A DNA stretch of 64,000 nucleotides, taken from the IMG/VR virus record IMGVR_UViG_3300028422_000701; one strand, 5' to 3'. Within the stretch, counting starts at the first letter, position 1. Each line of letters opens with the position of its first letter. The DNA is from a virus (taxonomy: Duplodnaviria; Heunggongvirae; Uroviricota; Caudoviricetes). Below the pieces are notes generated by a model that was not told where the DNA came from, searched no databases, and saw nothing but the letters and a program-made list of their open reading frames with translations. The position numbers were made by a program, and so were the translations under genes. Shown one piece after another: positions 46,284 to 57,400 of this stretch.

Positions 46284-48017
46284 TTAATCATTATAATCCT
46301 CCTGTAAACTTAAAATACCAAGTAATTGTAAAACATCTTTCTTTTGTGTTTTTAATTGTCCATCAACAATATAATCACTTAGGTCACGTTTACCTTCTAT
46401 CATTTTTTCTATTTCTTCATCTATAGTATCCTTTGCTACTAAGGTAACAACATTTACAGTTCCAGCTGTACCTATTCTATGTGCTCTATCCTCGGCTTGA
46501 GCTTTATTTGCATCATTCCAAGGACTGTCCATAAATATAACATAACTAGCCTTATTTAAAGTATAACCAGTACCCATAGCTCCAATAGTACCAACAATAA
46601 CGTTATTATCTTTTGTTTCCTGGAATAATCGTATGTTATACATACGTTGTTCATCCTTAACATCACCTGTAATAGTAAGTGGGTTATATTGGTTTAAACG
46701 GTTTGTTATAGCCGCAACCATTTGTTCCCAATTACTAAAAATTATAACTTTGTTACCCCTACTAACGATCTCGTCTACTAGTTCTTCTAACCTGTCCATT
46801 TTTGGGTCATCCTTAATATCAGGGGCTAGTAATTGTGGGTGTCCAGTAATCTGTCTTAATCTAATTAATTTAGCAAGTGGATTTGGGCTTATCATAATTT
46901 CATCTATTTGGGTAATTAATTCATCCCTTATATCATTATATAAGTTTTGTTGTTCTTTACCCAATTCAATATAGTCTATTGATCTTATTTTAGGTGGTAA
47001 ATCTAAAACATCCTCTTTTTTACGTCTTAATTGGGCTGTACTAAGTAACTCTTGTAATTTATCTAGGTTTTTATACCCTAGTATTTCTCTACCCCCAAAA
47101 CCACCCATAATACAATATTTTAACTTAAACCTAGTTAAACTATCTCTATCGTAACCTAACCAATATAAAACATTGTATAAGTCAATAGCATTATTCATTA
47201 ATGGTGTACCAGTTAGTGCAATTTTATAATAACTCTGTAGTTTATGTATTGCCTTACCTGCCTGACTTTGGGAATTTTTTAATTTATGAAATTCGTCAAT
47301 AATTATCATTCCTATCTCTCCGCAATTAACTAACATTTGTAGTTTAAGTACGATATCTTTATTACGTAAACTTTCTTGGTTGGTTATTATAAAAAAGTCA
47401 TTTGGTAAGTTATCTAAATCTTCTAGTTTTCGTTTAGTATCCCCTTGTACAAGTTTATTCTTCTTGTTGGTATAAGTACCAATTATATGGGCTGTTTCAT
47501 AAGTATGTTGGTTTATTTCACTTAACCAATTCCATTTTAAACCATTAACCCCACAAATGATTAAACAATGTTTAAAACTATTTTTTCTACTTGCAGCAAT
47601 AACACTACTACTTAGTGTCTTACCTAAACCTTGGTCATCCGCAAGTAGAAAACAGTTATGTGTTTTTGCAAATTCAATTGCCTCTACTTGGTGTTTAAAT
47701 AATTTAGTTTTACATTCTATTTCTTCATTAACTGATTTATTTTTACCTTTTGTTTCCCTGTACTGTGATACCTTAGAAATTATTTCCGTACAATCGTTAT
47801 AAGAACCAATACCGTAGTCTTCAAATTTTTGCATTAATAAATCAAAGTCTTCTATAGGTACTTCCCATTCCTTACTGGTGGATAAAAAATAAGCCCTTGG
47901 TAATTCATGTAACCTTCTAACAGTTTCCATATTATAGGGAAACCATATGAAGATGGCTTTCTTTCTTTTATCCGTAAGTATTGCATGACGTACATCTAAG
48001 TATATAACATTAACCAT
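46284..48017 (-). CDS. SNF2-family helicase
   Basis: LLADDQGLGKT, DEFHKLKN, QAEDRAHRIGT motifs. Confidence 0.75.
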   Translation of the reverse strand: MVNVIYLDVRHAILTDKRKKAIFIWFPYNMETVRRLHELPRAYFLSTSKEWEVPIEDFDLLMQKFEDYGIGSYNDCTEIISKVSQYRETKGKNKSVNEEIECKTKLFKHQVEAIEFAKTHNCFLLADDQGLGKTLSSSVIAASRKNSFKHCLIICGVNGLKWNWLSEINQHTYETAHIIGTYTNKKNKLVQGDTKRKLEDLDNLPNDFFIITNQESLRNKDIVLKLQMLVNCGEIGMIIIDEFHKLKNSQSQAGKAIHKLQSYYKIALTGTPLMNNAIDLYNVLYWLGYDRDSLTRFKLKYCIMGGFGGREILGYKNLDKLQELLSTAQLRRKKEDVLDLPPKIRSIDYIELGKEQQNLYNDIRDELITQIDEIMISPNPLAKLIRLRQITGHPQLLAPDIKDDPKMDRLEELVDEIVSRGNKVIIFSNWEQMVAAITNRLNQYNPLTITGDVKDEQRMYNIRLFQETKDNNVIVGTIGAMGTGYTLNKASYVIFMDSPWNDANKAQAEDRAHRIGTAGTVNVVTLVAKDTIDEEIEKMIEGKRDLSDYIVDGQLKTQKKDVLQLLGILSLQEDYND

Positions 48018-48040
48018 ACCTCATCTCCTTCATATATTAA

Positions 48041-48069
48041 ATTATACTACATCTTACGTGAAATGTCAA
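48041..48069 (-). promoter_or_regulatory. promoter TTGACA-N17-TATAAT (minus strand) for the SNF2 block
   Basis: minus-strand TTGACA (plus 48064-48069) and TATAAT (plus 48041-48046), 17-nt spacer; aaagtgtgaaaa motif upstream. Confidence 0.55.
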
Positions 48070-48114
48070 TAGAAAATAAAAACAAAGTGTGAAAACTTTG
48101 TTTATTTTATTTTA

Positions 48115-48191
48115 TGGTGCTCCCGATAGGACTCGAACCTACAAGACCTTGTTTCTAAGACAAGGATGTTTACCAGTTTCATCACAGGAGC
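48115..48191 (-). tRNA. tRNA with anticodon UAG (Leu anticodon) but class-I (short variable arm) shape
   Basis: acceptor GCTCCTG/CGGGAGC plus A plus CCA; anticodon arm CCTTGT-CTTAGAA-ACAAGG; T-arm GTAGG-TTCGAGT-CCTAT. Confidence 0.55.
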
Positions 48192-48196
48192 ATATT

Positions 48197-48276
48197 TGGA
48201 GACCTAAGTAGGATTCGAACCTACGACATATACCAGATTTGCAGTCTGGCGCCTTAAACCACTTGGCTATTAAGTC
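48197..48276 (-). tRNA. tRNA-Cys(GCA)
   Basis: acceptor GACTTAA/TTAGGTC; anticodon loop CTGCAAA; CCA encoded. Confidence 0.7.
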
Positions 48277-48281
48277 ATATA

Positions 48282-48373
48282 TGGCGTCGAGTACTAGATT
48301 CGAACTAGTGGATCCCCTAAAGGATCGACGGTTTAGCAAACCGTTGGTTTAAGCCATGCTCACCCAACTCGAC
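48282..48373 (-). tRNA. tRNA-Ser(GCU)
   Basis: acceptor GTCGAGT/ACTCGAC; loop TTGCTAA; long variable arm. Confidence 0.7.
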
Positions 48374-48474
48374 ATGAAGTGTAAGGTACGTACTTTTGAA
48401 AGGTTGTTTCCCTATGTCTTAGGTAGAGCCTTACGTACACTAAGACGTATATGTAGATAATAAGTATACAATTT

Positions 48475-48550
48475 TGGTTGTCCCTGAAGGATTCGAACCT
48501 CCACATTACGGGTTCAAGGCCCGCTATCTTACCAATTTGATCAAGGGACA
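48475..48550 (-). tRNA. tRNA-Gln(UUG)
   Basis: acceptor TGTCCCT/AGGGACA; loop CCTTGAA. Confidence 0.7.
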
Positions 48551-48556
48551 ATACTA

Positions 48557-48631
48557 TGGTGTTCCCGATAGGATTCGGACCTATGTAATACGCTTTAGAA
48601 GAGCGTTGCCTATCCACTAGACTACGAGAAC
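48557..48631 (-). tRNA. tRNA-Arg(UCU)
   Basis: acceptor GTTCTCG/CGGGAAC; loop CTTCTAA. Confidence 0.7.
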
Positions 48632-48869
48632 ATAATGGCGCACGATTTCTACACTGGAATACGTGCCTAAGTGTTCGTATCAACTGCTTACCTATAAAAC
48701 TTCGAATTAATACAGGTGCCTTCAACGTAGTATAACTGGTACTAACCCTTGAGGCTTATACAACCCAATCTATATTTGCGTAGTATAGAAACGACTTCCT
48801 ATGGTTCACCGGAAGTTAGGTTACTCTATTTCATACTAAATATACCACTATTTAGTAAAATATTTTTAA

Positions 48870-48946
48870 TGGCGGTTCGTACGGGAGTCGAACCCGTTTG
48901 CTAACTCGCTGACAACGAGGTGTCCTAACCATTAGACCTACGAACC
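48870..48946 (-). tRNA. tRNA-Asp(GUC)
   Basis: acceptor GGTTCGT/ACGAACC; loop TTGTCAG. Confidence 0.7.
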
Positions 48947-49343
48947 ATTAAAGGGCTGGAAGATGAGGAATCGAACCCCAAGCAAATCTTTATTATACTA
49001 TATATTTACTGCAGTACTATATAGTTTTTATTATATTCAAACACTTTCTAAAGCTGACGCTATCCATTTGTCTTATCTTCCAATATAAAAATGGTGAGGG
49101 GTATAAAGGAGTCGAACCTTTATTTACACCGTACATAGCCAACCCGTCAGTTGGAATTGTTACCACAAGGCAACAACCTTCCCCGTCAACCCCATATAAG
49201 TGGCACACAGTGTAAGAATCGAACTTACCCAGTCGGTTTTGGAGACCAACTCGCCATCCTTGGAACATTCCCATGCATATAAATATATCGTAACCCCGTG
49301 TTTTAATTGCTTTCTGCACACGATACTGACCAGCAATAATAAA

Positions 49344-49431
49344 TGGTGCTCCCCGCGAGACTCGAACTCGCACGCCCACAACGGGCATAGGATTTTAAGT
49401 CCTACGTGTCTACCAATTCCACCAGGAGAGC
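49344..49431 (-). tRNA. tRNA-Leu(UAA)
   Basis: acceptor GCTCTCC/GGGGAGC; loop CTTAAAA; long variable arm. Confidence 0.7.
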
Positions 49432-49604
49432 ATGAAGACTTTTTTACACTACTAGGTAAAGTCAAACCCCGTATGTTTTGGATCCACGACCTGCTTATGT
49501 AAACATACAAACAATATTAACTTGCTGGCGAACTTTTACTAGTTAACAAATAAAAGCTGGTTCAGAACTTTTAGTACGGTATTTTCTCACCGTTAATTTT
49601 TATA

Positions 49605-49680
<76 letters not shown>

Positions 49681-49691
49681 AAGTTAGGTAA

Positions 49692-49982
49692 TTACTTACC
49701 TAAGTGTTGATCAAGTTTGTTTGCTATTTCTTGTAATTTTGGCATTATTTTTAAATATTTACGTGCATTAAATGTTGCAAATACATAAATACCTTTATCT
49801 ATTAAATTACAATAATATACGTTACCCATATTTACCATATCAGACATACTTGAAGTGTCATATAAATCATATCTGTCTATAACTCCACGTTCAACTTTCG
49901 ATATTAGGAACATTGCATCCATATATTGTTTAGCATCGGGCATATTATCAAACCTTTTAATTAAGGTTAACCATTTTGCCAT
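49692..49982 (-). CDS. hypothetical protein embedded in the tRNA array
   Basis: 96-aa ORF with RBS aggagg. Confidence 0.4.
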   Translation of the reverse strand: MAKWLTLIKRFDNMPDAKQYMDAMFLISKVERGVIDRYDLYDTSSMSDMVNMGNVYYCNLIDKGIYVFATFNARKYLKIMPKLQEIANKLDQHLGK

Positions 49983-50055
49983 AAATACCTCCTTATTACC
50001 CCTATTAAGAAACTACGGTAGGTTAGTTTCTTAATACGAGTAACAAAATAATAAA

Positions 50056-50131
50056 TGGTGGACAGACTTGGTATCGAACCAAGATCCGAGGATTTTCAGT
50101 CCCCTGCATAGACCATCTTTGCTATCTGTCC
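50056..50131 (-). tRNA. tRNA-Phe(GAA)
   Basis: acceptor GGACAGA/TCTGTCC; loop CTGAAAA. Confidence 0.7.
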
Positions 50132-50205
50132 AAATATAAGTTGTTTAATTAACTTATACATATATTATAACATACAACGTACTAAAAGTAAATATTAAAG
50201 TATGA

Positions 50206-50742
50206 TTATTTATGTTTATTCTTTATATAACATTTACCACAAGCTGGAACATATTCATTATTACCAACTAATACCTTACCTTTTATATCATTACCTCTGT
50301 AAAGGGTAAATTTGGCAGGTTTATTACAGTAATAACAAGTTGCGTCATAAAACGTTATCTCGTCGGCTACTGCCATAATATTAGGCATTATACCAAATGG
50401 TTCTAATTCACTTGTCATTGCTAAACCTGAAATATAAAAGTCTTTGTCTTCATATAAAGACATATCAGTAATACTTTTTACATCCCCAGTTAAAAATTGA
50501 AACTCATCAATAAATATAGTTGTAACATTAGGTTTAAGTGTTTCTTTTAATTCTTTTAAATCCTCTATTAAAGTAGCTCTTAGTTCAGTAGTATTATTTC
50601 TACTTTTAATAATACCATAATCCCTATTGTCAACTTTTGGTTTATAACATTGTATAATATCTTTATTCCACATATTGTTATATACGTTAAGTAAACCGTT
50701 AGTTTTACCACTAAACATAGGTCCTGTGTAAACTCGTATCAT
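50206..50742 (-). CDS. tdk: thymidine kinase
   Basis: GPMFSGKT Walker A, C-terminal zinc ribbon CYYC...CGKC. Confidence 0.8.
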   Translation of the reverse strand: MIRVYTGPMFSGKTNGLLNVYNNMWNKDIIQCYKPKVDNRDYGIIKSRNNTTELRATLIEDLKELKETLKPNVTTIFIDEFQFLTGDVKSITDMSLYEDKDFYISGLAMTSELEPFGIMPNIMAVADEITFYDATCYYCNKPAKFTLYRGNDIKGKVLVGNNEYVPACGKCYIKNKHK

Positions 50743-50764
50743 GTATTTCCTCCTAATATATAAA

Positions 50765-50850
50765 TGGTGCCGCCTCTAGGTAACGATCCTAGCGAGCCTC
50801 ACGACAACTGCTTTACAGGCAGCCCCCTCTCCTTATGGGAATACGACGGC
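50765..50850 (-). tRNA. tRNA-Tyr(GUA)
   Basis: loop CTGTAAA, long variable arm, non-canonical T-loop ATCGTTA. Confidence 0.55.
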
Positions 50851-50858
50851 AAATATAA

Positions 50859-50934
50859 TGGCGCCTGATACAGGACTCGAACCTGTGACAATCCGGTTAA
50901 CAGCCGGGCGCTCTACCAACTGAGCTAATCAGGC
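50859..50934 (-). tRNA. tRNA-Asn(GUU)
   Basis: acceptor GCCTGAT/ATCAGGC; loop CTGTTAA. Confidence 0.7.
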
Positions 50935-50936
50935 AT

Positions 50937-51012
50937 TGGTACTCCGTGCGGGATTTGAACCCGCAATTACCACCTTGAAAGGGTGGTGGCTTAACCGTTC
51001 GCCTAACGGAGC
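50937..51012 (-). tRNA. tRNA-Glu(UUC)
   Basis: acceptor GCTCCGT/ACGGAGT; loop CTTTCAA. Confidence 0.7.
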
Positions 51013-51017
51013 AATTA

Positions 51018-51094
51018 TGGTACACCCTGTAAGACTCGAACTTACGACCTTCTGCTTGTAGAACAGATGCGCTAACCAACTGTGCTAAGGGTGC
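51018..51094 (-). tRNA. tRNA-Val(UAC) with unusual C33
   Basis: acceptor GCACCCT/AGGGTGT; loop TCTACAA. Confidence 0.5.
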
Positions 51095-51205
51095 ATGACG
51101 TGGCTTCTTTATTTGTGTACCTTTATTACAGGGTATTCGATGTACCCACCTGAAGCCGATCCCCACTTCATCTAGTTTATGTACGGGGGATTTATTTTTA
51201 ATTTA

Positions 51206-51282
51206 TGGTGTATCTGAAGGGACTCGAACCCATAATCTTTTGGTTCGTAGCCAAGTGCTTTATCCAGTTAAGCTACAGATAC
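51206..51282 (-). tRNA. tRNA-Arg(ACG)
   Basis: acceptor GTATCTG/CAGATAC; loop CTACGAA. Confidence 0.6.
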
Positions 51283-51285
51283 ATA

Positions 51286-51399
51286 TTAACCACGTTTTTT
51301 CTTTTTATTAGTTTTACCTTTACTAGTAGTAGTTGCTATTTTAGCAAAGTGTGCACTAAACTTTTCTTGTTTGTGTTTACTACCTTTTCCTTTTGCCAT
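51286..51399 (-). CDS. 37-aa lysine-rich small protein
   Basis: MAKGKGSKHKQEKFSAHFAKIATTTSKGKTNKKKKRG; RBS aaggagtga 9 nt upstream. Confidence 0.3.
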   Translation of the reverse strand: MAKGKGSKHKQEKFSAHFAKIATTTSKGKTNKKKKRG

Positions 51400-51423
51400 A
51401 TTAATCACTCCTTAATTATATAA

Positions 51424-51500
51424 TGGTGCGCCACCGAAGACTCGAACTTCGGACCTCTCACGTATCAGGCGAGTACTCTAACCAACTGAGTTAATGGCGC
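51424..51500 (-). tRNA. tRNA-Ile(GAU)
   Basis: acceptor GCGCCAT/GTGGCGC; loop CTGATAC. Confidence 0.7.
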
Positions 51501-51503
51501 AAG

Positions 51504-51578
51504 TGGTGCATCCAGAAAGATTCGAACTTTCAACCTCTACATTAAAAGTGTATTATTCTACCATTGAATTATGGATGC
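51504..51578 (-). tRNA. tRNA-Lys(UUU)
   Basis: acceptor GCATCCA/TGGATGC; loop CTTTTAA. Confidence 0.6.
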
Positions 51579-51579
51579 G

Positions 51580-51747
51580 TTATGTATCTTGTGCACCCTT
51601 ATACTTTCGTTTTCTAGGTATTAGATACTTTAATGACTTATGTACTTTACCACCCTTCATGACTTGTTCTTGATGCCATAAATTGGGTAACTTAGCATAA
51701 TCTATTTTGTTTGTAGGTAATTTTATAACTTGTTTTTTCTTACTCAT
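51580..51747 (-). CDS. 55-aa basic small protein
   Basis: MSKKKQVIKLPTNKIDYAKLPNLWHQEQVMKGGKVHKSLKYLIPRKRKYKGAQDT; RBS agaggtga; ends 2 nt before tRNA-Lys. Confidence 0.3.
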   Translation of the reverse strand: MSKKKQVIKLPTNKIDYAKLPNLWHQEQVMKGGKVHKSLKYLIPRKRKYKGAQDT

Positions 51748-51770
51748 TTTAATCACCTCTTATATATTTA

Positions 51771-51846
51771 TGGTGGAGAATAAGGGACTCGAACCCTTGA
51801 CCTACTGCGTGCAAGGCAGTTGTTCTACCAGCTGAACTAATTCCCC
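51771..51846 (-). tRNA. tRNA-Ala(UGC)
   Basis: acceptor GGGGAAT/ATTCTCC; loop CTTGCAC. Confidence 0.7.
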
Positions 51847-51850
51847 ATAA

Positions 51851-51928
51851 TGGTCGGGATAGAGGGATTCGAACCCCCAACGCCTCCGCTCCAAACGGAG
51901 AGTTCTACCAAATTGAATCTACATCCCG
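51851..51928 (-). tRNA. tRNA-Pro(UGG)
   Basis: acceptor CGGGATG/TATCCCG; loop TTTGGAG. Confidence 0.7.
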
Positions 51929-51952
51929 ATATAGTTAGTTAAATAAAATATG

Positions 51953-52234
51953 CTATCTTATTCTTTCTATTGTTTGACCTTGGTTGTTTAATAAAAATAC
52001 TCCTGCATACAAACTTGGTCTACTTTCTTTGTCTAATATTTTAAGTTCTACTTCTTCATCAGTTGGTATTCTATTTAATGGTAATGTATATAATAATTCC
52101 TTACTTCTATACATATTTATAAAATCCCTATTTGACGCATCTGTAAATGTGTTTACATTATCTATATCGGCATATATGTGCTTATGTCCATCTATAGACA
52201 ATCCTTTACTATATTCAACTAATTCTACTATCAT
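51953..52234 (-). CDS. hypothetical protein embedded in the tRNA array
   Basis: 93-aa ORF. Confidence 0.35.
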   Translation of the reverse strand: MIVELVEYSKGLSIDGHKHIYADIDNVNTFTDASNRDFINMYRSKELLYTLPLNRIPTDEEVELKILDKESRPSLYAGVFLLNNQGQTIERIR

Positions 52235-52280
52235 TCTATCTTATCTCTTTTCTATCTAACTATCTATCTAACTAACTATT

Positions 52281-52357
52281 TGGTGCCAGTAACAGGACTT
52301 GAACCTATAATCCCACGGGTATGAACCGTGTGCATTAACCATTTGTGCTATACTGGC
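52281..52357 (-). tRNA. tRNA-Met(CAU) elongator-type (or Ile2 if lysidinylated)
   Basis: acceptor GCCAGTA/TACTGGC; arm CACGG-TTCATAC-CCGTG. Confidence 0.65.
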
Positions 52358-52360
52358 ATT

Positions 52361-52434
52361 TGGTTGCAGTTGCTAGGATTCCAACCTAGTATCTTCCTAT
52401 AACGAGGCGTGCGTGCATCACACTCTCAACTACA
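52361..52434 (-). tRNA. tRNA-like gene, anticodon unresolved
   Basis: T-arm CTAGG-TTGGAAT-CCTAG and acceptor TGTAGTT/AACTGCA plus CCA; anticodon arm pairs poorly. Confidence 0.35.
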
Positions 52435-52438
52435 TATA

Positions 52439-52514
<76 letters not shown>

Positions 52515-52521
52515 ATATAAT

Positions 52522-52598
52522 TGGTACTCGTTGATGGACTTGAACCACCGACCGCTCGCGTATAAGGCGTTTACTCTAACCAACTGAGCTAAACGAGC
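52522..52598 (-). tRNA. tRNA with anticodon UAU (Ile-AUA reader?), weak anticodon stem
   Basis: acceptor GCTCGTT/AACGAGT plus CCA; loop CTTATAC. Confidence 0.4.
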
Positions 52599-52671
52599 AA
52601 TTAGCGTACCACTTTGATATAAGGTCCAAAATGTTTCCAACTGTAAACTCCCTATGGGTTACCATAATTTT

Positions 52672-52752
52672 TGAACTGGGGAGGACTCGAACCTCCATAC
52701 CCAAACTTGTTGTGTTGTACGTACAACGCTTTTCCAATTAAGCTACCTGTTC
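52672..52752 (-). tRNA. degenerate tRNA-like element (no encoded CCA)
   Basis: T-arm GGAGG-TTCGAGT-CCTCC, acceptor GAACAGG/CCAGTTC with one mismatch; 12-nt palindrome TTGTACGTACAA replaces a normal anticodon arm. Confidence 0.3.
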
Positions 52753-52759
52753 ATATAAT

Positions 52760-52832
52760 TGGTGGAGTCATTAGGATTCTAACCTAAATTGAAGGCAACG
52801 CGTGACTTACTTCTAGTAACATACTTTTCCCC
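52760..52832 (-). tRNA. degenerate tRNA-like element
   Basis: T-arm TTAGG-TTAGAAT-CCTAA and TGACTCC-A-CCA 3' end, but the 5' acceptor matches 5 of 7. Confidence 0.3.
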
Positions 52833-52840
52833 ATATAAAT

Positions 52841-52941
52841 TGGTGCGGACGGGAGGGATCGAACCTCCAAACTTGTGTACTTAAAGCCTGCCTTAAAAGT
52901 CATGAACAATTAAGGGTGTATACCCATTTCACCACGACCGC
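52841..52941 (-). tRNA. long (about 100 nt) tRNA-like element
   Basis: T-arm GGAGG-TTCGATC-CCTCC, acceptor GCGGTCG/CGTCCGC (1 mismatch), CCA encoded; anticodon region does not resolve. Confidence 0.3.
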
Positions 52942-53394
52942 ATTTTGTGTTACCTCACTTGTTTTTTAAAAGGTTATAGAGTAACTATTTACTGTTATTT
53001 CCCTTTAGTACCTTATAGGCACTGTACTAAATAATACATTAAAGTTTTAAATTAATCATTACGCTTAGATTAATTCTTTGCGTTATGGCAGGTATCTCCA
53101 TTTGTATTTATCAGCTTAACAAATAAAATAAAAATAACTTTTACCCGCTGTATTTTTATATTTTATTTAGTACACTAACTACAAGAGTTAATGTGTATAG
53201 TAATGCCTCGGACTCATTACTAAATTTCCTACACTAAGGTATTACCTTAGACCGAGTAGCATATTGTAGAGTTATTAACTCCTTTGTAAGATGTAAACAT
53301 ATTGCAATGTTTTATGTTTTTAGTCAGCTGTTTTACAAATATTAAACATAAACTCATACATCTTACAAAGCAAAGAACAATTTTATTTGCTCTT

Positions 53395-53454
53395 GGCGGG
53401 GCAGTAGGATTTTACCTACCGTTAGTATTACTACTAACACCTTTGTCCCCCGCC
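53395..53454. ncRNA. 60-nt three-helix tRNA-like structured element
   Basis: GGCGGGG ... CCCCGCC outer helix enclosing GTAGG-ATTTTA-CCTAC and GTTAGTA-TTAC-TACTAAC hairpins. Confidence 0.3.
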
Positions 53455-53587
53455 AGCAACAAACAAATGTTGCCCCTAGTTTACAGGTTATACGCTTCCT
53501 CTGTTGTAGCTCATTCTGCGTTAACCATAATTTCGGTCGATACTTTGCTACAAGGGTTTACCAGCATCTTTCCCTTAATTTTTAATA

Positions 53588-53677
53588 TGGCGCCAGGAGA
53601 GGGATTCGAACCCGCAGTACGCTTTCACGTACACTGGTTTTCAAGACCAGCTCTTTCACCAATTCAGACATCCTGGC
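53588..53677 (-). tRNA. tRNA-Ser(UGA)
   Basis: acceptor GCCAGGA/TCCTGGC; loop CTTGAAA; long variable arm. Confidence 0.7.
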
Positions 53678-53841
53678 ATCTCTTCGCCAAGGAACCTTTG
53701 TAAGTCACGTTTTTGTCTTGTTCTTACATAGCCACTTCCCATATTACGCTCACGTTTTCTATTTTTTGTATTTCTTCCGTGACCAAAGGCTGAGTAACAA
53801 CCAAGTACTTTTTTAACGTAACTATTTTTTGTTTTCATGTA
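53656..53841 (-). CDS. 61-aa basic small protein
   Basis: MKTKNSYVKKVLGCYSAFGHGRNTKNRKRERNMGSGYVRTRQKRD...; perfect RBS aaaggagg; 3' end overlaps tRNA-Ser by 22 nt. Confidence 0.3.
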   Translation of the reverse strand, partial: YMKTKNSYVKKVLGCYSAFGHGRNTKNRKRERNMGSGYVRTRQKRDLQRFLGEEMPGCLNW

Positions 53842-53880
53842 AATTACCTCCTTTAGAAGATAATCACACCCTTTCGTTAT

Positions 53881-53955
53881 TGGTTGGAAAGGTGGGAATC
53901 GAACCCACATGCTTAGATTCACAATCTAATACGTTAACCATTACGTCACTAACCA
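53881..53955 (-). tRNA. tRNA with GUG anticodon (His?) and imperfect acceptor stem
   Basis: arm TTAGA-TTGTGAA-TCTAA; T-arm GTGGG-TTCGATT-CCCAC; acceptor TGGTTAG/CTTTCCA has two U-U mismatches; no G-1:C73. Confidence 0.4.
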
Positions 53956-54121
53956 CATATTGGAGTCAGGTTTATTTCTGCACTTGGAAAACCCTTCACG
54001 AAAACCATCCAAAAATTTTTACATAAAGCTCAACGCCCTATATTGCGATTTAACCGAATCGACATCAGTACTTTATAATTTATTAAATCTTTGTATCTTC
54101 AATGGAATAATGAGTTCCACT

Positions 54122-54197
54122 TGTTGTTAATTGGAGAAAGTGATGGGATTCGAACCCACGTAATCTGCTTGGAAGGCAGATAGACTAGACCACTGTC
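54122..54197 (-). tRNA. tRNA-Gly(UCC)
   Basis: acceptor GAGAGTG/CACTTTC; loop CTTCCAA. Confidence 0.7.
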
Positions 54198-54289
54198 CTA
54201 CACTCTCAAGTTACCTTATACATACAGGTCGGTATATATAAGGTTGTATTCCTATGGAATTTCGTTTGTTAATTTAACTTAACAAATTA

Positions 54290-54318
54290 ATTATAACACA
54301 TTCTATTATGAATGTCAA
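54290..54318 (-). promoter_or_regulatory. promoter TTGACA-N17-TGnTATAAT (minus strand) driving the tRNA array
   Basis: minus-strand TTGACA (plus 54313-54318), TATAAT (plus 54290-54295), 17-nt spacer, TG extension; aaagtgtgaaaa motif upstream as at 48090. Confidence 0.55.
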
Positions 54319-54426
54319 TAGTAAAGTGTGAAAAAGTTTAATTTGTGGGTTTAAACTTTTTCAATGAGGGAGTAATAATATGGTGTACGACTTTTTTGGT
54401 AAGGTCATTCGTCAGGACCGTGTATA

Positions 54427-57400
54427 TTATAATAAGGATGTAACGCTAGCGTTTTTAAGTTTATACTTAATTCCGTCGTATACAGTATAATTTAATGTTC
54501 CTAAGGTTAATTGTACAGTACCACTATTACTAGGGAAATAACGTTCAGTAATTTGTATAACTCTATAATTAGCAATTACACCTATTTCTTCTAATTTAAC
54601 CGTTATAATGTCACCTAAATAAAATGTTTTGTCTACCATACTTTCTAACTTAGAAGCTGGAACTGTAACTTCAATTGAAGTAGTTTGGTTTAAACTTTCA
54701 ATTTCTGCTTCGGTTGTTGAAATAACAGAATTAAGTGAAGATTGGTTACGACAATCTTTATAACCTAATTTACTGTTTACCCCGTAAGCATTTTTATTTC
54801 CACCAAAATAAATAGTTCTAGCTGATCCTTGTCCTTGACCTGCACTTATTAATTGATTAATTGTACTTAAAGTGTCTTCTGTATTTGTAACCCCAGTAAT
54901 ATCACCTGTACTAAAATTAAGTACAACAGGGTTATTAATTTGTTGGTTTAAACTTCTATTTACCCCTTTTACAATCATACAAGTATTTGGCATAATAGTA
55001 CGTGTATTATAAATGTTAATACCTTTTTTTAAATTATAAACATCGGTGTATAATAACCAACTATAATCAGTTCCTGAACATAATTCAAATAGTGAAGTAC
55101 TTAATACTTTAAATCTAAAACTATTACTTACTAGTGGTCCTTCCCAAGATGTTGAATCAAATAAAGTACCAAAGTTTACATTACCCATACTCCAAGACAT
55201 AGGTATATTTTGTTGTGGGATAATTTGGTTGTTTGATCTAGTTTTATATATTAAATCAAATATAGCATAAGTTACTGGAACATTTGTATAAATAATTGAA
55301 GAATCACTTGTACCATCTGTGTCTCCAGTTATTGTTGTGTCTAACACATAATTGTATGCTGGAACAAAAGTACCGTTATTGGCTAAATAATTATCCATAT
55401 AAGTAATGTAACGTTGTAAATCAACACAAGCCGCATCAACTAATGTTTGGGTAGTGTCGTCTGGTGTATCTAACATTGTTGTTTGATATAATAATAATTT
55501 GGTTCTTAAAGTAGTTAAGTTAGTTGTAAAATCAGTTGTTGGTGAGTTACTTATTTTAGCATACTTTATACCATCTTTAAATTTTGTTTGTAAGTCTTCA
55601 AAATCAGTATAAGGGTAAGTTATTTGTCCTGTACTTAATAATGTTCCTCCCGGAGGCACAATAGTAGAAAAACTAAATAAACCTTTAACTTCTATACCCC
55701 TAACACACATATTGTAAACAATATTATCTTCATCTTTTTGTACCTGTAACCTCTTGTATAAGATTATATATTGACGATAATATTTACCCCATGTGTCATT
55801 AATTATAATATCATTTTCGGTATCACCATATATAAAGTTAGTTGTTTTTTGTTCTAACTCTGGTAATAGTATATAATCACCTATGTTTATATTAGATACG
55901 TCTGTTAATTTAGGGTTAAGATTTAATGTCACTGTTCCTATGTCACTCCAAGCTCTACTTAAAGTTATATCAGTGTAATTACGTATAGTTTGTTTTTGAA
56001 CAAAGTCAACTGGAACACCAAGGGAAACAAAAGTACATTTAATAGAATCTTGATTTTTAAACACCCCTCTATTTTCCATAACGAAAGAACTATCATAAGC
56101 TGATTCCCAAGTAGTAAAATGAGGTACGTGATATAAAATAGAACAATTATCTTTGTTTAAAATACTATTATCTTTAATATAAGATACAGCTTCTTGTGCA
56201 ACTTCTTTACATTCAAGTTTAGTTAAATAAGTTAGCCCTATGGCTAAAGTAAATAAAGACCAATCACATAAAGAATCAAATTCAACTGAATTGAATATAA
56301 TAACATTAGGTTTACCATTCCAAGGTGGTAAATAACTACTGTTAGAATAGGTTTCATACCCCGTATATTCTATTTCTCGTTCATTTTGGTCATAAGCAAT
56401 ATAGGTTCCAGGATTTTCAAGTAATGTTTCTTCATCTGTGTTAGGAACCCACGTAAAGGCAAGGGTGTTAACTTCACCAGTTTTAAACCTAGTTTTAAAT
56501 ATGTGAGAAAATTCATAATTTGTACTATAAGAAGAAGTGGAAATATAGTAAAACTGTAAGTCATATATAAATTCACCATCTTGTTGTTGGGTAATGTTTA
56601 TAACTTTAAGGTTATAATTTCCAAAACTACCTATTATAGCTCCTTCAGTTAATTCTTTTTTATTAACCATAAATTTTAAATACATACTATACATATAATG
56701 AGTAAATCCAGACATAGAAATTTGAACTATGTTTACAGTACTTAATTTATTATTAGAACAAGCGTCATTACTGTAAACGTAACCACTATAATCAATATAG
56801 TTTACGTTACTGTTTGTAAGTTGTGATTTACCTATATTGGAATCTAGTTCATAAAATCCTTCCTGTGGTTGTATAGTGTTGTAATAATAACCTTTTAACG
56901 TCATATCGGATAAAATTATACCATCGCTGCTATACGCCAATCTATGTACAATTAAGCTATCAGTAATGTCAGATAAATCTATATCCGTTCCTATTATTGT
57001 TTCAATACCATTTATTACAATGGATAGTTGAACATCTCCATATTTTAATAAAGTCTTTTTAAATTTTATATTATAACCACTCATATATTCTGGCGCATAT
57101 AAACTACTTGATTCTACATAATTATTAAAATATGGTAAAGGTATTAAATGTTGTGTTGTATTGTCTAAGTAGTTACTTTGGTATAATAAGTAAAACTTAT
57201 TATTTGTATATATAATATTAGCAAATTGCGTACCTTGTTGAAATAAGTTAGTATTATAACAATAGTTATGTGTACAATCATAATTTACAATGGTTGTATA
57301 GTCACTTGTATTTTCATTATAACCTAATATTTTAAATGAGCTTAGTACACCACTTAAATAGGTTTTTGTATCACTATTTAATGTACCTATATAATTATAT

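Follow-up and report, generated by a model that had tools for sequence, protein, structure and literature searches.

The DNA analysed here is a stretch of 64,000 nucleotides (nt) from the Caudoviricetes record IMGVR_UViG_3300028422_000701, the whole of which is referred to as the window. It carries an array of about 6 kb in which ARAGORN at default settings called 25 tRNA genes, all on the minus strand (48115-54207). CCA is encoded by 23 of the 25, and Trp and Tyr are the only amino acids left without a tRNA among these calls. In the run between tRNA-Leu(UAA) and tRNA-Asp, where an earlier note had seen a series of degenerate tRNA-like elements, lie three elements that the default calls pass over, here termed E1, E2 and E3. 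They proved to be a mixture, E2 and E3 being broken as the note had it and E1 a true tRNA-Trp(CCA). The run is thus probably made up of one working tRNA and non-decoding relics, in an array subject to gene birth and death.

Both strands of the whole window were scanned for T arms, defined as a 5-base-pair (bp) stem around a TTCRANY-type loop. Under the strict definition, T arms of the GTTCGA/GTTCAA type were confined to the array and to the minus strand, 20 of them lying within called tRNAs and three being orphans. These three, which are far beyond chance, are exactly the T arms that the note had reported at these minus-strand sites, and belong to E1, E2 and E3 (Table 1). A looser loop definition added two further orphan T arms, at 52787-52771 and 52389-52373. 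Each T arm had also been described as leading into CCA, with no 5′ acceptor strand at the expected distance. CCA follows in E1 (G-CCA) and, loosely, in E2 (TC-ACCA), but E3 ends in G-CCC; a 5′ strand is wanting in E2 only, E1 having one at the canonical 72-nt span and E3 a perfect stem that spans 126 nt. ARAGORN with its intron option, proposed as a check, returned at -ps90 E1 as tRNA-Trp(CCA) and E3 as tRNA-Tyr(AUA) with a 51-nt intron. A scan for a permuted or split tRNA, made over the 170 nt that lie 5′ of each T arm, gave no evidence of one but has no power, matches of 6/7 with G·U allowed being expected by chance; thermodynamic folding of E1-E3 and of two further elements, X1 and X2, was uninformative (z-scores -1.6 to +0.5).

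Table 1. Positions of the elements of the array and of related features in other contigs
Feature	Position	Strand	Remarks
Small hairpin GCACG..CGUGC, then GCCA	48636-48666	minus	4 nt upstream of tRNA-Arg(UCU)
E3, tRNA-like gene	48953-49082	minus	G-CCC tail; ARAGORN with introns at -ps90; T arm 48980-48964, TGGGG-TTCGATT-CCTCA
AT-rich 56-nt block at the anticodon-loop site of E3	48993-49048	minus	hairpin CUAUAUA...UAUAUAG and 10-nt palindrome TACTGCAGTA
E2, tRNA-like 3′ part	49092-49193	minus	102 nt; T arm 49121-49105, AAAGG-TTCGACT-CCTTT; strand ACCCC; TC-ACCA; joined to two unrelated hairpins
E1, tRNA-Trp(CCA)	49201-49276	minus	76 nt; encoded G-CCA; ARAGORN at -ps90 only; T arm 49228-49212, GTAAG-TTCGATT-CTTAC
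X2, tRNA-sized	52361-52434	minus	8-bp acceptor UGUAGUUG/CAACUGCA; A-CCA; T loop UUGGAAU; Rfam tRNA 15.6 bits
Val2, second ARAGORN "tRNA-Val(UAC)"	52671-52753	minus	tail AAAA, no CCA; Rfam tRNA 44.5 bits
X1, GGGGAAA.../...UGACUCC-A-CCA	52760-52832	minus	73 nt; homolog L029 7236-7307, E 7e-11
"tRNA-Met(CAU)"	52841-52941	minus	101 nt; arms other than the anticodon arm good, as is A-CCA; 38 bits with Rfam tRNA (loop insertion of 21 nt)
Consensus sigma-70-type promoter TTGACA-17-TATAAT (with TG)	54290-54318	minus	12/12 matches; upstream of the first tRNA
tRNA-Trp copies	L004 6047-6122; L115 1116-1189; L116 1024-1097		ARAGORN default calls tRNA-Trp in all three
Transfer-messenger RNA (tmRNA) genes within related arrays	L008 8180-8547; L044 7458-7851		tag peptides predicted by ARAGORN; none in the window
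Initiator-like tRNA-Met family, loop CUCAUUA	L010 5993-6070; L044 5508-5584		83.5% identity
Orphan tRNA-like unit family	L010 6297-6370 (L10b); L044 6592-6662		75% identity

E1 folds into a complete cloverleaf. Its acceptor strands, GCATGGG/ACTGTGT, pair at six of seven positions, three of the pairs being G·U, and leave one mismatch (G7·A66); the earlier hand-folding overlooked the 5′ strand because three of its acceptor pairs are G·U. The D stem (UGUU/GGCG) also has three G·U among its four pairs, the anticodon loop reads CUCCAAA (U33, purine 37), the variable loop is of 4 nt, and the acceptor and T stems are of 7 and 5 bp. The T loop follows TTCRANY with G53-C61, and the acceptor stem stands at the standard spacing and shows covariation. 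Compared with canonical tRNA-Trp(CCA) (RF00005), E1 has the same 7-bp acceptor stem, 4-bp D stem with G18G19, 5-bp anticodon stem, consensus T arm, G73 and CCA, but differs in its G·U-rich acceptor and D stems, in the 7-66 mismatch and in an Rfam score below 29 bits, the gathering score of RF00005.

With a 32-nt piece of the E1 body one contig was found in IMG/VR (L004), and with a 29-nt piece two more among JGI contigs (L115 and L116); each of the three holds a called tRNA-Trp. The bodies of the four genes are near-identical (96.6% over 58 nt between E1 and L004), and their acceptor stems differ, those of the contigs being AGGGGCG/CGCCCTT, ACGTACG/GGTGCGT and ACGTGCG/GGTGCGT. Across the four sequences 96.4% of the cells of the tRNA-Trp cloverleaf are paired, and four acceptor pairs are altered on both sides against 1.0 expected (1/500 shuffles as high; n = 4 sequences). 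When the partner strand was slid by 1-3 columns, the pairing fell from 96% to 37-50%. The discriminator G73 is invariant in the four copies. A scan of 185,579 species of bacteria and archaea, each represented by one genome, did not find the E1 body.

A covariance model had been proposed as the arbiter of such elements. The Rfam tRNA model left E1 below its threshold, with tRNA-Sec as the best match within the clan (26.2 bits), and the complete tRNA was recovered by the comparative analysis instead. The Trp copies of L004, L115 and L116 likewise stayed under the Rfam tRNA threshold, at 27.6-31.7 bits, with weak tRNA-Sec matches instead. Because these three copies, accepted by ARAGORN at default settings, also miss the threshold, the low score of E1 belongs to the family as a whole and stems from its G·U-rich D stem, not from decay; the Rfam tRNA model is insensitive to these tRNA-Trp genes. 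An identity as tRNA-Sec, which needs a UCA anticodon, 8/5 stems and a long variable arm, was rejected, as E1 has the anticodon CCA, 7/5 stems and a 4-nt variable loop. The direct repeat GGGGTTRACG that flanks E1 was rejected as a target-site duplication; it is within chance and was unreported by the repeat finder. Given the complete cloverleaf and an acceptor stem that co-varies across four sequences, the earlier proposals of a pseudogene, an intron-containing or permuted tRNA, a decoy or a processing signal do not apply to E1. These features identify E1 as a tRNA-Trp(CCA), probably a working one, of a phage-borne family in which the D stem is rich in G·U and the acceptor stem evolves quickly while always staying paired. 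As such it would decode UGG and supply the Trp decoder missing from the ARAGORN list.

The acceptor stem of E3, TGGAAGA/TCTTCCA, is perfect (7/7 bp, 49082-49076 with 48963-48957). It was found independently by the repeat finder as an 11-nt inverted repeat (I2) with its arms 104 nt apart, and the estimated chance of a 7/7 Watson-Crick stem over the offsets tried is about 0.007. E3 also has U8 and a class-II-type D arm with a 3-bp stem (GAC/GUC) and an 11-nt loop containing GG. A five-pair stem, CUUUA/UAAAG (49053-49049 with 48992-48988), encloses 56 nt where a canonical 5-bp anticodon stem closes a 7-nt loop. The Rfam tRNA model gave 16.9 bits, aligning the 5′ and 3′ parts and skipping the middle. 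No promoter was found within the insert, and the D-arm 18-mer had no match in an exact IMG/VR scan. In four relatives, as in the window, a related tRNA array stands upstream of the helicase gene (L008, the L010 group, L029 and L044; 16-27 tRNAs, including normal Trp and Tyr), and the 5′ 34 nt of E3 are closest to the tRNA-Ser(GCU) of L044 (24/29 positions; 5/200 shuffles as high). Having a Ser(GCU)-like 5′ half, no normal anticodon loop and no CCA, E3 unites tRNA descent with a lost decoding feature. It is best read as a former class-II-type tRNA gene with a Ser-like 5′ half, in which the anticodon and variable region would have been replaced or expanded by 56 nt and the CCA mutated.

ARAGORN with introns instead offers E3 as an intron-containing gene that would give a working tRNA, a candidate for the missing tRNA-Tyr with anticodon AUA. 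Tyr is, with E1 counted, the only amino acid without a tRNA in the array, and tRNA-Tyr(GUA) is present in all four related arrays, adjoining tRNA-Trp in L010 and L044. However, when all splits of a 7-nt loop across the insert were tried with either possible stem, U33 and a purine at 37 came together just once. This sole loop-restoring split, which is the ARAGORN solution with its 51-nt intron, has the anticodon AUA and the insert between 32 and 33. The intron would thus sit at 32/33 and not at 37/38, A34-U-A is an anticodon not used for Tyr, the variable region after the stem is short, unlike that of bacterial tRNA-Tyr, a class II tRNA, the gene ends in GCCC, and no splicing endonuclease is known in bacteria for such an intron. 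Group I is the only intron type known in bacterial tRNA genes, at roughly 200 nt or more. A group I intron in E3 was therefore rejected, the insert of 51-56 nt being too short and the group I intron families giving no match in 47500-55000 at E up to 10. An intron of the archaeal or eukaryal type (after position 37, with a bulge-helix-bulge) was also rejected, the only placement being 32/33 and a bacterial host being indicated. An insertion in the anticodon loop thus stands as anatomy, while no canonical intron position restores a normal loop, and we regard a spliced, working tRNA from E3 as most improbable.

E2 is tRNA-like in its 3′ part only, and here the description as degenerate was borne out. 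After the consensus T arm it continues as AUACCCCUCACCA. The 72 nt before the T arm contain two hairpins, GGTTGTTGCC-TTGT-GGTAACAATT and CCAACT-GACG-GGTTGG, and are not above shuffles in their likeness to about 110 canonical tRNAs (152/200 shuffles score as high). The best 5′ strand, GGGGTTG, pairs at 6/7 positions with G·U allowed, in a register shifted by one, so that the tail would be of 5 nt; over the roughly 220 offsets examined, about three such pairings are expected by our estimate, so this one is at chance level. E2 can also be drawn as 5 bp (GGGGU/ACCCC) on a 7-bp T stem, which makes the usual 12 bp but is a drawing and not evidence. No convincing 5′ acceptor strand, D arm or anticodon arm was found in E2, and no Rfam match. 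Homologs were absent from INPHARED and IMG/VR, and the 3′ 34-mer was without a match in an exact IMG/VR scan. Derivation from tRNA-Gln was rejected, the similarity being at chance level without the T arm. E2 is best read as the 3′ end of a tRNA gene that appears to have been fused to unrelated sequence.

E2 might otherwise be a collapsed tmRNA remnant that kept both ends and lost the middle by deletion. The tmRNA genes of the L008 and L044 arrays both begin with GGGGTTG, exactly like E2, the T loop TTCGACT is common to E2 and the L008 tmRNA, and ARAGORN and Rfam find no tmRNA in the window. A similar short element at L010 6070-6158, which has a 16-nt block in common with E2, has ends that resemble those of a tmRNA with G3·U70. 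However, the common 7-mer and T loop are weak evidence, the Rfam tmRNA model reached 6.6 bits on E2 and matched the T loop only, and blastn gave no similarity between E2 and tmRNA. The E2 3′ strand ACCCCUC is, moreover, unlike the tmRNA strand CAACUCC and makes no G3·U70. We therefore consider a tmRNA origin very unlikely. Neither E2 (102 nt) nor X1 (73 nt) combines tRNA-like ends with G3·U70, pseudoknots and a tag reading frame, as a tmRNA does.

The second interval, 52672-52941, had been said to hold further degenerate elements. Instead, ARAGORN and the Rfam tRNA model call two tRNA-like genes there, Val2 and a long tRNA-Met, both scoring over the 29 bits of the gathering score and both with abnormal anticodon arms. 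The anticodon arm of Val2 is replaced by the palindrome GTTGTACGTACAAC (52714-52727); the palindrome that the note had placed at an anticodon position thus exists, its length being 14 nt and not 12. Val2 has G at position 33 and a duplication of the 3′ strand ACAAC. Even without the T arm it aligns with the tRNA-Arg(ACG) of the window, by its D arm and flanks, at a score of 43 vs. a shuffle maximum of 36. This descent, together with the lack of a normal anticodon loop and of CCA, identifies Val2 as a damaged tRNA-Arg(ACG) paralog and not a tRNA-Val. Palindromes at anticodon positions were ruled out as DNA-level signals, because the AT-rich window shows no excess of those of ≥10 nt (90 vs. 118 in shuffles).

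The putative tRNA-Met of this interval has an over-long anticodon arm (9 positions), in which CCUUAA/UUAAGG, two U·U and a G-C close the loop UUCAUGA. Its variable region is of 22 nt, and the 3′ strand of its stem is partly duplicated, as is ACAAC in Val2. X2, which lies outside the interval, has a decayed anticodon arm (CUCGUUA), no normal anticodon loop and a retained A-CCA. It is 69% identical over 58 nt to the L010 initiator-like tRNA-Met, with nothing above chance once the T arm is left out. X2 is thus predicted to be a decayed relative of the initiator-like tRNA-Met family of L010 and L044, its descent being weaker than that of Val2 and E3.

ARAGORN also passes over units in the L008, L010, L029 and L044 arrays that are the size of a tRNA and have a T arm, ACCA and an acceptor stem that pairs. 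Elements of this sort are therefore regularly present in such arrays. Two families of units are common to L010 and L044 (Table 1), and ARAGORN at default settings misses three of their four copies, the initiator-like copy of L044 being called tRNA-Met. No counterparts of E2 or E3 were found in the four related arrays, in 50,697 phage records searched with blastn, or in exact scans of IMG/VR; blastn at distant settings on the same records matched only parts of canonical tRNAs. Three more helicase relatives and Bacillus phage Flasso have no tRNA array at the corresponding place. Exact look-ups for closer relatives returned only Logan contigs of 2-4.5 kb identical to the window, none of which covers E1-E3.

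One unit of the window, X1, is set apart by its conservation. Outside the central arm X1 and its L029 homolog are identical at 49/51 positions (96%), vs. 62-77% for the canonical tRNAs common to the window and L029 and 64-70% for coding DNA. The central arm cannot be aligned, yet it forms a hairpin in both. This conservation points to selection or recent transfer. The acceptor of X1 has G1-C72, G2-C71, G3·U70, G4-C69 and A73, with A·A at 5-68 and A·G at 6-67; its D hairpin is a miniature of 3 bp that lacks GG, and X1 further has a central hairpin, the T loop UUAGAAU without C56, and no anticodon loop. G1-C72, G2-C71, G3·U70, G4-C69 and A73 make up the alanine identity set of tRNA-Ala and tmRNA, and G3·U70 with A73 suffices for charging by alanyl-tRNA synthetase, even of minihelices. 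X1, and not E1-E3, shares the positions from G1-C72 to G4-C69, including G3·U70, and A73-CCA with the tRNA-Ala of the window and the tmRNAs of the relatives. It differs from tRNA-Ala and tmRNA in having no UGC anticodon, D-loop GG, C56 or tmRNA body. Among the five arrays X1 and tmRNA are complementary, X1 occurring without tmRNA in the window and L029, and tmRNA without X1 in L008 and L044. An exact IMG/VR scan with the 5′ 20-mer of X1 returned the known contig only, and a genome scan with its 3′ end returned nothing. X1 may be a functional alanine-type tRNA mimic.

The same possibility can be raised for the other elements, namely that E2 and E3, with X1 and X2, are functional anticodon-less tRNA-like RNAs kept for their acceptor/T-arm half. 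Possible roles would be punctuation of the long array transcript for RNase P and RNase Z, service as substrates of CCA-adding or aminoacylating enzymes, or action as sponges for host toxins on tRNA 3′ ends. The T arms are intact, the E3 acceptor stem is perfect, and CCA is encoded in E2, X1, X2 and most orphans of the relatives; the conservation of X1 above canonical tRNAs and its alanine identity positions agree with such a function. Phage tRNAs are, further, known to counter tRNA-targeting defences (PMC10264068, PMC11555353). However, the known defences of this kind mostly cut anticodon loops, which these elements lack. The searches detected no homolog of E2 or E3, E3 has lost its CCA, E2 is without a sound acceptor helix, and the flanking tRNAs bear their own processing signals, which makes extra punctuation needless. 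On balance, we judge a function shared by these elements to be unlikely, and a role for tRNA-like halves to be most plausible for X1.

Several observations nevertheless weigh against reading E2 and E3 as plain relics. Their consensus-perfect T arms and the mismatch-free acceptor stem of E3 exceed what uniform neutral decay would leave, and the CCA of E2 is correctly placed; the intact halves would fit selection on the acceptor and T arm, or else large damaging events of very recent date. Distant relatives have at least two orphan families in common (X1 of the window and its L029 homolog; L10b and L044 6592-6662), so not all of these units are junk. E2 shares a 14-nt block, CAACYGACGGGTTG, with an orphan of L008 (L8d) and a 16-nt block, AGGTTGTTGYCTTGTG, with an orphan of L010, both below blastn significance. 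These blocks could hint at common descent, perhaps from an old maintained family. As a family motif CAACYGACGGGTTG was rejected, since 19/19 IMG/VR matches lay in unrelated DNA without a T arm or tRNA-like flank, and were thus chance matches.

Reading the run as one tRNA with relics, we propose that E2, E3, Val2 and X2 would have arisen as by-products when units of a fast-turnover array were duplicated, interrupted by insertions or joined by illegitimate recombination. There is no sign that CRISPR activity or an integrating element caused the relics. E2 and E3 would not decode, because neither can present an anticodon. The array looks like a single transcription unit because a perfect promoter stands just upstream of the first tRNA and the next perfect one, at 48069-48041, comes only ahead of the helicase gene. 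E1-E3 are thus probably included in one transcript driven by the 54318-54290 promoter, and E2 and E3 would be transcribed together with the tRNAs on either side. RNase P recognises the stack of acceptor and T arm (7 + 5 bp), which E3 has kept, and so probably still cuts this element. RNase P would probably release E3, and less surely E2, as short non-decoding RNAs.

The phage of the window is a low-GC (guanine plus cytosine, ~30%), siphovirus-like phage of Bacillota. The window encodes an SNF2 helicase, a DnaC-like loader, a replication initiator, a thymidine kinase and a 1748-residue tail protein. By the helicase, the nearest isolated phages (~45% identity) infect Bacillus, Clostridium and Streptococcus, and the nearest metagenomic helicases are only 52-53% identical, the phage therefore being without a close relative in collections. 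The promoters, the CCA ends encoded in the tRNA genes and the replication genes all point to a host among the bacteria.

Among the other genes of the array is a tRNA-Ile with the anticodon UAU (52522-52598, minus strand), which reads AUA directly, an uncommon bacterial solution; an initiator tRNA and an elongator tRNA-Met(CAU) are also included. A candidate Y-shaped RNA, with an 8-bp GC stem around two hairpins, lies at 53395-53454 (minus strand) in a 646-nt non-coding gap of the array (52942-53587). Its minimum free energy is -31 kcal/mol vs. -18 for shuffled sequences (z -4.6; 0/200 shuffles as good), and an Rfam search with it gave no match. The small hairpin at 48636-48666 folds weakly (z -1.1) in a 238-nt gap (48632-48869) that is otherwise featureless; it is possibly the last remnant of another tRNA 3′ end, which the sequence only suggests.

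Pseudo-tRNAs are routinely reported in phage tRNA clusters (many phage genome papers), and tRNA fragments and pseudogenes of prokaryotes are mislabelled with the wrong isotype by software (van der Gulik et al., 2023, PMC9897764). The present elements are of these kinds, E2 being a 3′ fragment, E3 an interrupted gene and Val2 an isotype-mislabelled paralog of the error type described there. They differ from such pseudogenes in that several stand in tandem in one array, probably transcribed as a whole, and keep consensus T arms. E2, E3 and X1 are placed in a genomic setting like that of RNAC and RNAD of phage T4, which are encoded in the T4 tRNA region and have tRNA-like ends; no sequence relation is expected. 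These T4 RNAs (species 1 and 2) are small RNAs of still unknown function (PMC9697503).

A wider proposal is that Bacillota siphoviruses with large tRNA arrays maintain anticodon-less, tRNA-sized RNAs that consist of an acceptor/T-arm half with ACCA, and G3·U70 in X1, and that would be processed, perhaps charged, and put to a non-decoding use, E2 and E3 being members or recent ex-members. We regard this proposal as speculative and quite unlikely. If it is true, the anticodon-less RNAs could soak up host enzymes or toxins acting on tRNA 3′ ends.

Default tRNA finders overlook the only tRNA-Trp of this phage and label a broken Arg paralog as tRNA-Val, so that tRNA counts would be inflated and counts of the amino acids covered by the phage would be wrong here. 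The locus shows the turnover of an array, in which whole tRNA units, such as the Trp body, are swapped between unrelated phages and acceptor stems are remodelled with compensation, while insertions and fusions break up other units. On the whole the run is nothing out of the ordinary for phage arrays, and it yields one correction, the missed tRNA-Trp, and one lead, X1, the only piece with possible wider interest, as its conservation is above that of real tRNAs.

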